Positions 30,719-36,312 of a stretch of 64,000 nucleotides of DNA are shown one piece after another. The notes below the pieces were generated by a model that saw only the letters and a program-made list of their open reading frames with translations, was not told where the DNA came from and did not search any database. A program made the translations under genes and the position numbers. The stretch's first letter is position 1, and each line of letters opens with the position of its first letter. Source of the stretch: Nitrosopumilus sp. (lineage in GTDB: Archaea > Thermoproteota > Nitrososphaeria > Nitrososphaerales > Nitrosopumilaceae); the NCBI GenBank assembly GCA_965197525.1, contig OZ240211.1, positions 1,568,001 through 1,632,000 of the forward strand, given 5' to 3'.

Positions 30719-31081
30719 TTAACAGAATGTAAACGGGTGGCCTACCTTTCCACAGTTCATCTTATCAAGCCCCTGCACCATGAGCTCCTCGTTTATCTGA
30801 AGCATAAACAACTTGCCGCGATCTATGTATTTGCGGTTATCATACTGGAGTCTGCATTCGTTTGAACTGTAAGATTTTTTAGTACCATGCTTGCCTAGTT
30901 TGTCTGGAGAGGATGTGTTTTTGGTCATGATTGATAGTCTGATTGACAACGCACCTCTCTGTTCAATACAGTTTTCTATTGAAAGTGTTTGATACAACGT
31001 TCAAATTCAGTTGTTCTATGCCTAATCTGATCTGATTTTGGATTAGTTAGGCGTGGTTGATGATAATTAGGAAACAGAGTT
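30719..31081 (-). pseudogene. IS5-family remnant: left end plus transposase N-terminus
   Basis: End AACTCTGTTTCCTAA (31081-31067, minus strand), then YDNRKYIDRGKLF...KMNCGKVGHPFTF, resembling archaeal IS5-type N-termini; truncated. Confidence 0.55.
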
Positions 31082-31174
31082 CCGAAAAAGAACTTCTTAA
31101 GAATTACTAGCAAAAATCCCACGCCCACAGTTCCAATAATTGGTGTAATTGACTTGCTTTCATCTGGTAATATT
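31080..31174. repeat. Exact 95-bp copy of 30462-30556
   Basis: ttccgaaaaagaacttcttaag...catctggtaatatt in both places, offset 618. Confidence 0.92.
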
Positions 31175-31176
31175 GT

Positions 31177-31280
31177 AACTTGTAATAATTACATCCCTAA
31201 CTTTACAGTCTCACGCCAAATACCCTGTCACCTCCCTAACTTTACAGTCTCTTGAAAACTCCCGAATATTGAACAGAGTA
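31177..31280 (-). repeat. Right TIR with subterminal 19-bp motifs
   Basis: TCCCTAACTTTACAGTCTC at 31194-31212 and 31233-31251 (39-bp period); 31177-31193 is the reverse complement of 13675-13691. Confidence 0.9.
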
Positions 31281-31330
31281 TTATCTTCAACTCTGAATGC
31301 ATGTAAAAACATCCTCGTCGTAGTCTAGAT

Positions 31331-31448
31331 GATGGATCGACCCCTTGGGAAACATGTGCTTCGCGCACTTAACTTTGAATGGGGCAATCCGAGCTGCTGC
31401 GTTCCTGTGCCTCGCGCACTGATAGGTGATTGCAGCCTCCGATCCATC
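31331..31448 (+). ncRNA. Predicted bridge/seek RNA
   Basis: Closing stem GATGGATCG/CGATCCATC; two loops, each with a GTGC-YTCGC-GCAC hairpin; four guide segments match the element junctions. Confidence 0.8.
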
Positions 31449-31479
31449 AAAAACAATCCGCAAGGAGGTGATAAAAAGG

Positions 31480-32580
31480 ATGAGAAATATTGGAATAGAC
31501 ATTAGCAAGAGAAAATGCGTGGTATGTGTCATGGATGACAAGGAAAGAATACTAGAGGAGACTACATATGACAATACGCTAGAAGATGCAAAAGAGTTTG
31601 CAGGCAGGATGAAAAGAAAATACGGCAAGAGAAGGGGACAGTGCCGTGCGGCATGCGAGACTACAGGAAACATGTGGCTCAAGACATTTGAGGCATTTGA
31701 GGAACACGACATACCAATCCAGCTTGCCAACACCTACAAGATGAAGATAATATCAGATACTGACATCAAGACGGATCCCATCGATGCACGAAAGATTGCC
31801 AACATACTTCGTGTAGAGATGATTCCACGGTGTTATGTGGCGCCCCCAGTACTGCGTGATGCCAGAGAGCTGCTCAGGTACAGAATAAGCATGGTTCAGG
31901 CAAGGACTGCACTTATCAACTATACACACGGTCTGCTTGACAAGTACGATGTAAGACTGAACGTCTCAAACATGTACAGCAAAAAAGCCATCGGACTGCT
32001 CTCACATACAGAACTGAAAAGACCAAACGACAACCTGATACTAAAAAACTGTGCCAAAAGAATTGCACATGTCACAGAAGAGATAACAAATGTCGAAACA
32101 GAGATAGACAAACAAGCAGCAGTAAACGATGATGCAAGATTGCTTATGAGCATGACAGGACTGGATGTATTTGCATCAATGCTTGTCGTATCAGAGATTG
32201 GGGACATATCAAGATTCAAAACCCCGGAACACTTGGTCTCATGGGCAGGCATGTGTCCCACCGTCTACCAATCAGGTGATGTAACACATCATGGCCGCAT
32301 GAAAAAGGCAGCAAACAGAAGAATAAACTGGATACTTATTCAAGTAGCAAACGTGGCAGTAAGATACGATGACAAGTTAAAAGAGTTCTATGAGAGATGC
32401 AAAAAAAGACATGGCGGCAAACATGCGATTGCCGTAACACATGTGGCAAACAAGATGATACGAATCATTTGGGCCATACTGACACTCAGGGAACCGTACA
32501 AGTCACACAATGTACAAAGATATGGCAGAAAGATAAAGAGAATGAACAGTGTTCGACAGTCTATGCAGGGTACGGAATAG
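31480..32580 (+). CDS. IS110-family recombinase
   Basis: DEDD residues in GIDISK, ACET and KTDPID; C-terminal VYQSG serine; SD-like AGGAGGTG upstream of ATG 31480. Confidence 0.93.
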   Translation: MRNIGIDISKRKCVVCVMDDKERILEETTYDNTLEDAKEFAGRMKRKYGKRRGQCRAACETTGNMWLKTFEAFEEHDIPIQLANTYKMKIISDTDIKTDPIDARKIANILRVEMIPRCYVAPPVLRDARELLRYRISMVQARTALINYTHGLLDKYDVRLNVSNMYSKKAIGLLSHTELKRPNDNLILKNCAKRIAHVTEEITNVETEIDKQAAVNDDARLLMSMTGLDVFASMLVVSEIGDISRFKTPEHLVSWAGMCPTVYQSGDVTHHGRMKKAANRRINWILIQVANVAVRYDDKLKEFYERCKKRHGGKHAIAVTHVANKMIRIIWAILTLREPYKSHNVQRYGRKIKRMNSVRQSMQGTE

Positions 32581-32958
32581 CCAGTCAGTCACACATCTGT
32601 TGCAGTTTTTTTCCTAGCGATAGCTTTAAAAATATACACGTGTATTGTAGGCGTGGATCGAAGGCCAAATGGAAACCACGCGTGGCTGTGCCCGGATGTT
32701 TTAACATAGGCGTTTCCCAATTTCGATAAACGCATCTGAATTGCCATAAAGAACACGATTATCGTGTGGCTTGACACTGTTTACGGACTAAATTAATCGT
32801 AAAAGTACGAATTGTTTGAATTGAGAAACAAAGTTCAGCAATACAGACAGTTATATACACCCTATTTTATTCTAATATTGTAGTCAAGCATGATATTGAA
32901 TGATAACATTAAACATTGTATAATAAAGACGGTAAACACACTAAACAAGTCGCCGCAC

Positions 32959-35900
32959 ATGTCATTGTGTGGGGGGGGGGGGCGAGCGAGCAGAAATACG
33001 ATCCTGTTGGCTTCAACTATTTTATTATGTGTGGTTATGATAGGCATCTCTCCTGCAGCGTATGGAACCCTATCTGATCCTGTACCAGTGTCATCATTTG
33101 AAGATGGTGATACTGTCAACGGCAAGACGTTTGACGAACTTTTAGGAGCACGTGGTCTTACTACCATCGAGATCGATTCCAAGATATATGCACTGGTTAC
33201 ATCGGGTGTAGACTTTGGCGTTCAAATTATAGATATATCAGACCCTGCAAATCCAGCACCGGTGTCATCCTTTGATAATGGTGATACTGTAAACGGTAAG
33301 ACGTATGATGAGCTTGACGCTCCCAGACAAATAGCCTCAGTCAAGATCGGCTCAGGTACGTATGCACTTGTAGCAAATAATATGGACGGCGTTCAAATTA
33401 TAGACATAACCGATCCTGCAAATCCTGAACCTGTAACATCCTTTGATGATGGTGATACTGTAAACGGTAAGACGTTTGATGAGCTTAACGGGGCATACGG
33501 CATCACTACAATCAAGATCGGTTCCAGTACATACGCACTGGTAACGGCAGTTGATGATAATGGCGTTCAAATTATAGATATATCAGACCCTGCAAATCCA
33601 GCACCTGTATCATCCTTTGATGACGGAGATACTGTAAACGGTAAGACGTATGATGAGCTTGAAGACCCATACGACATCACTACAGTCAAGATCGGTTCCA
33701 AGACGTATGCACTGGTAGCGGCGCATGGCGACGACGGCGTTCAAATTATAGATATATCAGACCCTGCAAATCCAGCACCTGTATCATCCTTTGATGATGG
33801 TGATACTGTAGGTACTAAGACGTTTGATGAGCTTGCCGGGGCATACGGCATCACTACAGTCAAGATCGGTTCCAAGACGTATGCACTGGTAGCGACAGCT
33901 ACAGACGACGGCGTTCAAATTATAGATATATCAGACCCTGCAAATCCAGCACCTGTATCATCCTTTGATGACGGAGATAGTGTCATAGTCGGAAGTTTCG
34001 AGAGGCCATTTAGAGAGCTTGAATCGGGGTTTGGAATTACAACCTTGAAGTTTGGTCAGGGAGTGTATGCACTTGTGGCAGCACATGTAGACGACGGAGT
34101 TCAGATTATAGACATAACAAACCCTGCAAATCCAGTACCGGTGTCATCCGTTGACGACTTTGGCATTAATGGAGAACTTGATGGGGCATACACCGTCACT
34201 ACAGTCAAGATAGACTCCAAAGTGTATGCACTGGTGACGGGGTTTAATGATGCCGGAGTTCAAATAATTGATTTAGGAGAGGAACCGCCAGAGGGCCATC
34301 CTCTATTATCACCTAAACCTGTAACATCCTTTGATGACGGGGATTATGTAGGCAATAAGCAGTTTAAAGAACTCAATGGTGCACGTGGCATCACTACCAT
34401 CGAGATCGGCTCCAAGGTGTATGCACTGGTAGCAGCAGCCGTTGATAACGGCGTTCAGATTATAGATGTAACGAATCCTACAAATCCAGTACCGGTGTCA
34501 TCCGTTAATGACGGAAATACTAGAGGAGGCGTACAGTTACAAGAACTTAAGGGGGCGAATGGCATTACCACAATCGAGATCGCATCCAAGATATATGCAC
34601 TGGTAACGGCAGGTGGTGATAACGGCGTTCAGATTATAGACATAACAAACCCTGCCAGCATAAAAGGTGTGTCATCCTTTGATGACGGAGATACTGTAGG
34701 TACTGAGACGTTTGATGAGCTTACTACTCCCAGGAACATCGATGTCTTTAAGCTCGGCTTCAAGCTGTATGCCATTGTAGCATCATCTGGTGATAACGGC
34801 GTTCAAATTATAGACATAAGTAGTCCTCAAAACCCACTACCTGTATCATCCTTTGATGACGGAGATGCTGTAGGTACTGAGACGTTTAGTGAGCTTTTAC
34901 AAGCATTTGACGTCACTACAATCGAGATAGACTCTACTATGTATGCCTTGGTAGCAGCATTTGCCGACGACGGCGTTCAAATTATAAACATAACCGATCC
35001 TGCAAATCCTGCACCGGTGTCAGACTTTGATGATGGTGATATAGTTAGAGTTGGCTCTTTAGATCTAACATTTGACGAACTTGACGGGGCATACAGTATT
35101 ACTACCGTCACTATTGACTCCAAGGTGTATGCACTGGTAGTAGCACGTAATGACAACGGAGTTCAAATAGTAGACATATCCGATCCTGAAAATCCTGCAC
35201 CAGTATCATCATTTGATCACGGTGATACTGTAAACGGTAAAGTGTATGACGGGCTTAATAGGCCAACTAGTATTACCACATTGACGTTTGAGGGAGGAGT
35301 GTATGCGTTGGTAACGGCAATTAATAGCGACGGAGTTCAAATAGTAGACATATCCGATCCTGCAAATCCTGCACCAGTGTCATCCTTTGCTGATAGTGAT
35401 ATTGTCAACGGCAAGACGTTTGATAATCTTGGAGATCCATACGACATCACTACCGTCATGATCGGCTCCAAAGTGTATGCACTGGTAGCAGCACATTATA
35501 GCGACGGAGTTCAAATAATTGATCTTGGAGGGCCAAAGGTAGAGGTCCAGGGCAAGATCGCAGACAAAGGCGACACTTACAGTAGTGTGTGTAAGGCAGT
35601 CATCAAGGACATAAACCCAGATGTCAAGTGGAGTGCAGTTATTTCTGTGCATGGTTTTACGCCAGGGGAGTTTATCCGTGACACAATCACACTTGCAGCA
35701 GACGAATCATATGCAGAATCACCTAGTCCAAACTACCATTTTGTAATCAAAAAGTCCGATGCTTATGATGGTAGTGTCACGGTGCAATTCGTGGAAAGGG
35801 GTATCAATCCGTCCCACAGTGGTACATGTACGATTGACATAATGTCCTATGATGCATTGTTCGTAGAGAGGATCCCCGTCCCAGTGATCACACTTGACGA

Positions 35901-36312
35901 AGACGAAGGATCACCTAGGTTCGTTGCACGGTCAGTAGAGGGTATAGATAATACCAGTGCCGTATGTTTGGCCAGAGTAAATAACATAGACAGTTCTTTG
36001 GGTTGGTTTATAGACATTAGTCTGAGGGATCAGAATAACGATGTAATTGTTCAGACCCTGTCAGGTGTCGGGCCGCCAACAGTCAATTATTGGGTATCAG
36101 AAGATGTAACAGAGGATGGCATCATACAGGGTAAGAACTCTATGTATATGGGCAGGCAGAATTTTGTAATCGCAAAGTTGGTTTACTATGATGCAGACCC
36201 TGACAGGAATTATCAGTGCTTGTATGACGTGGGAGTGGATAGGAGAACATCAACAGGTGGGGCAGTAACCATAGACAATGTTGTCAGTGCTTTCGGCTAT
36301 ATCAGAAACTGA
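32959..36312 (+). CDS. Large surface protein with 14 LVIVD-like repeats (2 x 7-blade beta-propeller) and a C-terminal unique region
   Basis: 14 copies of YALV...GVQI(I/V)(D/N); repeats 7 and 14 end in IIDLG; probable start ATG 32959 followed by a signal peptide. Confidence 0.88.
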   Translation: MSLCGGGGRASRNTILLASTILLCVVMIGISPAAYGTLSDPVPVSSFEDGDTVNGKTFDELLGARGLTTIEIDSKIYALVTSGVDFGVQIIDISDPANPAPVSSFDNGDTVNGKTYDELDAPRQIASVKIGSGTYALVANNMDGVQIIDITDPANPEPVTSFDDGDTVNGKTFDELNGAYGITTIKIGSSTYALVTAVDDNGVQIIDISDPANPAPVSSFDDGDTVNGKTYDELEDPYDITTVKIGSKTYALVAAHGDDGVQIIDISDPANPAPVSSFDDGDTVGTKTFDELAGAYGITTVKIGSKTYALVATATDDGVQIIDISDPANPAPVSSFDDGDSVIVGSFERPFRELESGFGITTLKFGQGVYALVAAHVDDGVQIIDITNPANPVPVSSVDDFGINGELDGAYTVTTVKIDSKVYALVTGFNDAGVQIIDLGEEPPEGHPLLSPKPVTSFDDGDYVGNKQFKELNGARGITTIEIGSKVYALVAAAVDNGVQIIDVTNPTNPVPVSSVNDGNTRGGVQLQELKGANGITTIEIASKIYALVTAGGDNGVQIIDITNPASIKGVSSFDDGDTVGTETFDELTTPRNIDVFKLGFKLYAIVASSGDNGVQIIDISSPQNPLPVSSFDDGDAVGTETFSELLQAFDVTTIEIDSTMYALVAAFADDGVQIINITDPANPAPVSDFDDGDIVRVGSLDLTFDELDGAYSITTVTIDSKVYALVVARNDNGVQIVDISDPENPAPVSSFDHGDTVNGKVYDGLNRPTSITTLTFEGGVYALVTAINSDGVQIVDISDPANPAPVSSFADSDIVNGKTFDNLGDPYDITTVMIGSKVYALVAAHYSDGVQIIDLGGPKVEVQGKIADKGDTYSSVCKAVIKDINPDVKWSAVISVHGFTPGEFIRDTITLAADESYAESPSPNYHFVIKKSDAYDGSVTVQFVERGINPSHSGTCTIDIMSYDALFVERIPVPVITLDEDEGSPRFVARSVEGIDNTSAVCLARVNNIDSSLGWFIDISLRDQNNDVIVQTLSGVGPPTVNYWVSEDVTEDGIIQGKNSMYMGRQNFVIAKLVYYDADPDRNYQCLYDVGVDRRTSTGGAVTIDNVVSAFGYIRN
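32971..32982 (+). repeat. G12 homopolymer in the 5' coding region
   Basis: Twelve consecutive G encoding GGGG, four codons after the probable start. Confidence 0.85.

Follow-up and report, generated by a model that had tools for sequence, protein, structure and literature searches.

Within a 64,000-nt stretch of DNA from Nitrosopumilus sp. (contig OZ240211.1, positions 1,568,001 to 1,632,000; hereafter the window), positions 31296–32712 very probably represent an intact mobile element of the IS110/IS1111 superfamily that is guided by a bridge RNA (seekRNA). According to the proposed mechanism, a 118-nt RNA would be encoded between the left end of the element and its recombinase gene, and the outer stem of this RNA would hold two internal loops, the first of which (loop 1, target loop) would pair with both strands of a target of ~12 bp and the second (loop 2, donor loop) likewise with the two strands of the sequence created when the element ends are joined, ...ATAGG-TG-AATGCA.... 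The RNA-bound DEDD/Ser recombinase would exchange strands at the shared TG core, and the excised circle, with the predicted junction ...ACATAGG-TG-AATGCATG..., would insert without target duplication, both steps being proposed by analogy with the biochemistry of IS621 and ISEc11. Point mutations in loop 1 would have retargeted the sister copies of the element in the same genome.

Boundaries, core and recombinase

The element, its ends and its gene were located as follows.

31296..32712, + strand: insertion sequence of 1417 bp, its ends fixed by four equal-length copies and paralogous empty sites
31301..31314, + strand: left subterminal inverted repeat ATGTAAAAACATCC, 13/14 against the reverse complement of 32694–32707, with equivalents in related families
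31480..32580, + strand: IS110-family DEDD recombinase of 366 amino acids (Pfam, NCBIfam and PDB matches)
32694..32707, + strand: right subterminal inverted repeat GGATGTTTTAACAT, separated from the core position by the 3-bp extension AGG
32711..32712, + strand: right-hand core position, CG in the window copy and TG in the other three copies

Four copies of the element, each exactly 1417 bp long, 97–98% identical and placed between unrelated flanks, were found in the 2.21-Mb single-contig genome (Nitrosopumilaceae). The window copy is designated c1 and the sister copies c2, c3 and c4. Their junctions (a slash marks the element boundary) read ..AACTCTG/AATGC...ATAGGCG/TTTCCCAA in c1, ..AACTTTG/...ATAGGTG/ATACCTGA in c2, ..TAGTTTG/...ATAGGTG/TTTCATAA in c3 and ..TAGTTTG/...ATAGGTG/TTTTGGAG in c4, with TG at both junctions of the three sister copies, whereas c1 has TG at its left junction and CG at its right one. 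In other genomes, where 13 copies represent four related families, the dinucleotide TG also occupied both junctions in 13/13, making 16 of the 17 copies overall. Because three of the four copies and all 13 related-family copies carry TG on both sides, the core is the dinucleotide TG, and the 1-nt core (G) of the original prediction proved to be an artefact of a T>C substitution at 32711 found only in the window copy, in which G at 31521 and T at 31761 were further copy-specific variants. The same core was shared by target and donor: unoccupied sites held a single TG. These unoccupied paralogous targets revealed precise boundaries without duplication, and AAACTAGTTTGTTTCATAACATGCCACAG at C1:1061630 corresponded to the joined flanks of c3. 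The IS1111 convention, with TG counted with the left end, would place the element at 31294–32710. The earlier proposal that the subterminal repeats would sit 10 bp apart in the circle junction agreed with the sequence. The contigs of four public runs contained no circle junction, and none of them bridged this locus in its empty state.

The recombinase presented the N-terminal DEDD RuvC-like domain (DEDD_Tnp_IS110, PF01548, E 3.5e-23) and the C-terminal Tnp domain (Transposase_20, PF02371, E 4.1e-24), and matched the NCBIfam model NF033542, 'IS110 family RNA-guided transposase', with 229 bits against a cut-off of 140. In a phmmer alignment, accompanied by PDB matches to ISCro4 and IS621, residues D7, E60, D99, D102 and S265 fell at the catalytic positions of IS621, D11, E60, D102, D105 and S241. 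The closest homologues were found in Cenarchaeum and Nitrososphaerales genomes, and the closest named transposase was that of ISHvo10, with 31.6% identity over 99% of the length. With both domains present, the cut-off passed and the catalytic residues kept, the open reading frame was identified as the IS110-family recombinase that had been predicted, and the predicted archaeal host was equally confirmed, the genome sharing its GTDB family with that of a Cenarchaeum sp.

The predicted bridge RNA, its guides and its targets

The features of the RNA, of its guides and of the sequences that they match were the following.

31331..31448, + strand: predicted bridge RNA fold of 118 nt (covariance model R1, homologue comparison)
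31345..31354, + strand: 5′ guide of the target loop, TTGGGAAACA, exact complement of TG plus TTTCCCAA
31356..31368, + strand: hairpin capping the target loop, GTGC-TTCGC-GCAC, with covarying stem pairs (UA/GC/AU, GC/CG/UA)
31369..31380, + strand: 3′ guide of the target loop, TTAACTTTG, plus invariant AAT, identical to left flank and core apart from the two differences given below, pairing with the bottom strand
31398..31404, + strand: 5′ guide of the donor loop, TGCGTTC, pairing with the core G and the left end AATGCA
31407..31419, + strand: hairpin capping the donor loop, GTGC-CTCGC-GCAC, with compensatory changes in 4/4 pairs
31422..31428, + strand: 3′ guide of the donor loop, ATAGGTG, identical to right end plus core as found in the sister copies
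31289..31295, + strand: left target half and core, AACTC-TG, the outer end of the terminal repeat of a 130-bp miniature inverted-repeat transposable element (MITE)
32713..32720, + strand: right target half TTTCCCAA, complement of 31345–31352
32713..32835, + strand: remainder of the 130-bp MITE, with 6–7 paralogues in the genome

The predicted target loop was examined against the flanks of the element. Its 5′ guide TTGGGAAAC (31345–31353) was the exact reverse complement of GTTTCCCAA (32712–32720), and the match ran one base further, with A 31354 pairing with T 31294. The 3′ guide TTAACTTTG (31369–31377) differed from TCAACTCTG (31287–31295) at two positions, at both of which a guide U is opposite a bottom-strand G, and the AAT that follows it (31378–80) corresponded to the first three bases of the element, so that all three matches of the original prediction were reproduced. 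The 184-nt 5′ non-coding region contained five variable sites among the four copies, four of which (31347, 31348, 31371 and 31373) were placed within the 19 loop-1 guide positions (Fisher p=4e-4). These variants changed together with the flanks, 31347/31348 with the right flank and 31371/31373 with the left, the latter pair defining the states AAC in c1/c2 and TAG in c3/c4: TTAACTTTG accompanied AACT(C/T)TG flanks (c1, c2) and TTTAGTTTG accompanied TAGTTTG flanks (c3, c4). Similarly, in genome G235 the guides AAATG, ATGTG and AGATG were each found with matching flanks, and in genome G092 GTCGTG and TTTGTG repeated the guide-flank pattern of the window genome.

The covariation of guides with flanks expected from the original prediction was verified over 17 copies from five element families in five genomes, with pairing scored out of 19. 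The score of guides with their own flanks was 13.97, against 9.03 (sd 2.08) for cross pairings, and the observed value was reached in 0/20000 global permutations (p<5e-5) and in 2/20000 within-family permutations (p=1e-4). In the 3′ guide, the core and 4 nt paired in ~100% of the copies versus 23–36% in cross-family comparisons, and in the 5′ guide pairing exceeded background over the core and ~6 nt. From these two pairing stretches, which add 4 nt (3′ arm) and ~6 nt (5′ arm) to the core, the recognised target is predicted to be a sequence of ~12 bp of the form NNNN-TG-NNNNNN, in this case AACT(C/T)-TG-TTTCCCAA.

Loop 1 was hypervariable and loop 2 conserved across homologues. In the donor loop, TGCGTTC (31398–31404) matched the reverse complement of GAATGCA (31295–31301) with one G.T wobble, and ATAGGTG (31422–31428) matched the window-copy end ATAGGCG (32706–32712) with one mismatch, as originally read. 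The donor 5′ guide followed the left end over the five families (ACGCA/ATGCA, ACACA, AAGC, ATACA), and the donor 3′ guide equalled the right end 7/7 in all of them, in the states ATAGGTG, ATAGATG and ACAGGTG, a covariation that comprises few independent sequence states (3–4 in five families). A loop 1 that varies with the flanks and a conserved loop 2 whose changes follow those of the element ends are consistent with the bispecific RNA that had been proposed.

The fold itself comprised a 9-bp outer stem (31331–39/31440–48), a loop-1 stem (31341–44/31381–84) and a loop-2 stem with one bulge (31391–97/31432–39), the two internal loops being each topped by a GTGC-N5-GCAC hairpin. The covariance model R1 was built from a hand-drawn structure of the outer stem and the two stems enclosing loops with 4-bp hairpins, and of 151 genomes sampled from the order, 10 yielded the motif with this model, immediately upstream of related recombinase genes. 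Over 27 homologues, 92.6% of cells were paired versus 22–48% in slid controls, and 23 of the 28 pairs showed compensatory changes with both sides altered; the hairpin stems, for example, alternated between GUGC/GCAC, GGGC/GCCC, GACC/GGUC and others. The 118-nt upstream fold with two symmetric loops was accepted because this homologue comparison supports it, through covariance model and compensatory changes, and not because of single-sequence energy. RNAalifold on a plain MAFFT alignment recovered the fold only in parts. A search of positions 31000–33000 against Rfam at E<=10 returned no bridge-RNA family, its matches being a trivial 13-nt hairpin and a weak snoRNA-like match (31048–31127). A contig from an RNA library of a relative spanned 31294–31432 at a depth of ~3.6, which may be DNA or read-through and is no evidence of a discrete RNA.

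The sites defined by the guides were common in the genome and occurred in pairs. It was observed that AACTCTGTTTCCTAA and TAGTTTGTTTCATAA bracket elements of 1.35–1.4 kb encoding DDE_Tnp_1 transposases, and that AACT(C/T)TGTTT(C/T)CCAA forms the terminal repeats of a MITE of ~130 bp present in 6–7 copies (paralogues at C1:827065, 2176442, 1235494, 1256153, 1147871 and 1099759). The window element was inserted in a terminal repeat of one such MITE (31289–31295 plus 32713–32835), and in the uninterrupted paralogues C1:827065 and C1:2176442 AACTCTG was directly followed by TTTTCCAATTTCG. The other terminal repeat of the interrupted MITE (32821–32835, minus strand, C1:1600821) remained a free site matching the guides, AACTTTGTTTCTCAA. 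Because the guide-defined sites bracket IS5-type elements and MITEs, the three loop-1 variants in this genome, judged by their sequences, correspond to three terminal-repeat families, those of IS5-type elements and their MITEs. As separate observations, two adjoining DDE_Tnp_1 (IS5-like) elements of ~1.36–1.4 kb, one intact (356 amino acids) and one broken, were located at C1:1061500–1064600 (L076), with terminal repeats equal to the sequences spelled by the guide variants, and a further guide-matching site, AACTCTGTTTCCTAA, was present on the minus strand at 31053–31067, 230 bp left of the element, where it overlaps the snoRNA-like match and apparently marks one terminus of an IS5-like element.

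Alternative explanations and the class of the element

Several observations weigh against an intact, RNA-guided element. The homologue alignment used for the pair counts was fitted to R1 and leans towards the structure, and the fold is not the minimum-free-energy structure, the single-sequence folding energy being unexceptional (z −0.62). At the c2 and c4 sites only the left half and 3–4 nt of the right half matched the guides, the right flank of a Cenarchaeum copy (L067) mismatched its own guide, and two old truncated relatives (L007 and L008) carried guides unfit for their own flanks, a misfit that is compatible with decay or action in trans. Finally, C at 32711 mismatches the donor guide of the window copy itself and may impair this copy.

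That the window copy is a dead relic of an RNA-guided family, no longer able to excise because of T>C at 32711, is a reading that is possible but rather doubtful: only the window copy has CG, in mismatch with the donor guide ATAGGTG, and core identity is critical in IS621 (PMC11208160), yet neither the open reading frame nor the RNA nor either repeat is damaged, a guide U facing G on the bottom strand forms a wobble pair without a clash, and this copy might still act in trans as a source of RNA and protein. It is improbable that the RNA guides target choice only, as a narrow seekRNA, the protein reading the ends through the 14-bp repeats and the loop-2 matches reflecting shared ancestry. Such a division would suit the joint conservation of loop 2 and the ends, whose covariation comes from the few states mentioned above, as well as the mismatch next to the core in the donor 5′ guide of three families and the statement that IS1111 and IS110 types may not recognise their ends in the same way (Siddiquee et al., PMC11187229). 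It would not account for a donor 3′ guide that matches 7/7 in five families and changes with the end (ATAGG/ATAGA/ACAGG), for a donor 5′ guide that tracks the left end (G>A in Cenarchaeum, AAGC in G235), or for the geometry that loop 2 shares with loop 1. Least credible, with hardly any probability, is an ordinary transposase mRNA leader with coincidental guide matches and a protein that reads IS5-type repeats; the fold directly upstream of the ribosome-binding site, the unremarkable single-sequence energy and the T-rich consensus around TG common to all targets would fit a leader, but the within-family permutation result, the clustering in guide positions of the variation among near-identical copies, the exact matches of guide variants to different repeat families and the experimentally established RNA guidance of the protein family (PMC11208160, PMC11187229) speak against it.

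The RNA-guided element thus preferred is, by its ends and guide order, of the IS1111 type. In both loops, the 5′ arm is complementary to the top strand and the 3′ arm has the sequence of that strand, an order regarded as IS1111-type because Siddiquee et al. reported the same order for IS1111-family seekRNAs (PMC11187229). IS1111 elements are defined by subterminal inverted repeats of 7–17 bp, usually 11–13, with 7-bp left and 3-bp right extensions (PMC11187229), and here a 14-bp repeat (13/14), the 7-bp left extension TG+AATGC and the 3-bp right extension AGG were found; the same end geometry was observed in the four related families, the repeat being short in G235. The RNA, however, lay in the 184-nt 5′ region and not, as in the IS1111 description, in a long downstream non-coding region. 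The element does not fall in the IS110 group (IS621-like), its guide order being reversed in the frame of the gene and a 14-bp subterminal repeat being present; in the IS621-like order, the 5′ arm of the target loop equals the left flank and the 3′ arm complements the right flank (PMC11208160). The circle form differs from the standard IS1111 form only in the order of RNA and gene.

The original prediction was correct in combining IS1111-type subterminal repeats with a 5′ RNA. Its description of the combination as unusual holds insofar as an upstream RNA is atypical for IS1111, but ISMtsp17 and ISHvo10 are precedents: Siddiquee et al. 2024 (PMC11187229) noted that in a few IS1111-type elements, such as ISMtsp17, the non-coding region lies upstream, and listed ISHvo10 as a diverged relative in which long non-coding regions occur at either side. 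The host is archaeal as stated, but is not in itself unusual, since archaeal IS110/IS1111 elements are already on record, with 662 archaeal homologues (10.1101/2024.06.21.599552), and IS110-adjacent RNAs of bacteria and archaea have been mined on a large scale in published work (PMC11208160; bioRxiv 10.64898/2026.10.21.760802). In the literature searched, no bridge RNA was described in Nitrososphaeria and no RNA for ISHvo10 or ISMtsp17, and a search with R1 of the ISHvo10 and Natrinema loci detected nothing.

Compared with known systems, the element resembles the IS1111-family seekRNA elements ISEc11, ISPa11 and ISKpn4 (PMC11187229) in its subterminal repeats, its 7/3-bp extensions, the absence of target duplication and the natural reprogramming between relatives, whereas its RNA is encoded upstream of the recombinase gene and theirs downstream; it also differs from that family in its donor and target sites, placed in simple near-symmetrical internal loops, and in its Nitrososphaeria host. 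Its preference for the ends of other mobile elements recalls IS4321/IS5075, which target Tn21-family terminal repeats. With IS621 and ISCro4 (Durrant et al. 2024, PMC11208160; PDB 8wt6, 9t56) it shares a DEDD + Ser recombinase, a 5′ RNA, a target loop and a donor loop that each pair with both strands around a shared 2-nt core, and a long guide of ~8–9 nt with a short guide of ~6 nt, although its protein is only distantly related to theirs (E 1e-7 to 1e-8). It departs from IS621 in a guide order that is mirrored relative to the gene, in a TG core (CA when read on the opposite strand) where IS621 has CT, in its long subterminal repeats and in an RNA of 118 nt rather than 177 nt. ISHvo10, from Haloferax volcanii pHV4, is likewise archaeal and carries the nearest named transposase.

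Relatives, further features and significance

Shortened relatives, 74–79% identical, were found at C1:1712310, 2186890, 161826 and 2177465 (L006, L007, L008 and L009, respectively). They keep the left end and the RNA fold; L006–L008 retain the first 20–37 codons and L009 is without a detectable coding remnant. A right end, sought in these four relatives as a test for miniature non-autonomous elements, was found in none of them, and their loop-1 guides mismatched their own flanks. Solo left-end fragments of ~45–50 nt, ending inside the outer stem, were present at C1:474702 and C1:1892601 (L011 and L016), and a solo right-end remnant at C1:1256233 (L012) was placed beside another copy of the same MITE target. 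A sister family, 58% identical and with an intact gene (L005, C1:1456883–1458120), carried an 18-nt G-rich insertion in the inter-loop linker of its RNA. Three more intact IS110-family genes of other types (29–31% identical) and a fragment were located at C1:1841872, 1261524, 865657 and 368687, and no R1 motif was found upstream of these other-type genes. In Cenarchaeum sp. G038, two copies (L068 and L069) had an altered left terminus, ATTCATTTGG in place of AACACATGG, which resembles their own 3′ target guide, and were situated between inverted copies of a host repeat. In the neighbourhood of the window copy, the left flank contained an 18-nt direct repeat, CCCTAACTTTACAGTCTC (31195–31212 and 31234–31251), and partly recurred at C1:1581627, and a 1140-amino-acid open reading frame of many repeats of ~55 amino acids (SSFDDGDTV...GVQIIDIS..PANP) occupied 32890–36312, starting 180 bp right of the element.

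Further features within the element were as follows.

31464..31471, + strand: Shine-Dalgarno-like GGAGGTGA, 8 nt before the ATG and conserved in homologues
32606..32612, + strand: run of seven T, 26 nt past the stop codon
32625..32636, + strand: TATA-like box TTTAAAAATATA, with conserved TAGCGNTAGC just before it, pointing towards the right end

A TATA-like TAAAAA inside the left subterminal repeat, ~25 nt before the RNA fold, might act as a promoter, and the seven-T run is a possible archaeal terminator. Three families shared the motif TAGCG-N-TAGCT(T/A)TAAA in their 3′ non-coding regions, and the TATA-like box at the right end suggests a promoter that would read across the circle junction. 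The 132-nt 3′ non-coding region had no significant fold (z −0.29). Directly after the TATA-like box, a 13-nt stretch (32633–32645) held five sites at which c2 departed from the other copies.

Taken as a whole, it is rather unlikely that these traits define a distinct third bridge-recombinase arrangement in the Nitrososphaeria lineage, combining IS1111 polarity and ends, a compact upstream RNA of 118 nt, near-identical loop modules, an outward promoter and specialization on transposon repeats. If such an arrangement existed, the archaeal TATA promoter at the right end would switch on the RNA and the recombinase only after circle formation, and rapid guide mutation would lead to insertion into transposon repeats, making the element a parasite of, or a brake on, the IS5-type elements of the host.

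In the context of the bridge-RNA systems, the concept remains unchanged, the mechanism being already known from bacteria, to which the element adds a well self-documented member. Because its RNA (118 nt) and its protein (366 amino acids) are small and both loops are simple, it is a reasonable candidate programmable recombinase for testing, and it indicates that an upstream RNA is compatible with site polarity of the IS1111 type. Moreover, the three guide variants of one genome, each matching a different transposon terminal repeat, would constitute a natural reprogramming series, and on this comparative sequence evidence readable, internally validated bridge-RNA targeting appears to extend to ammonia-oxidising archaea.

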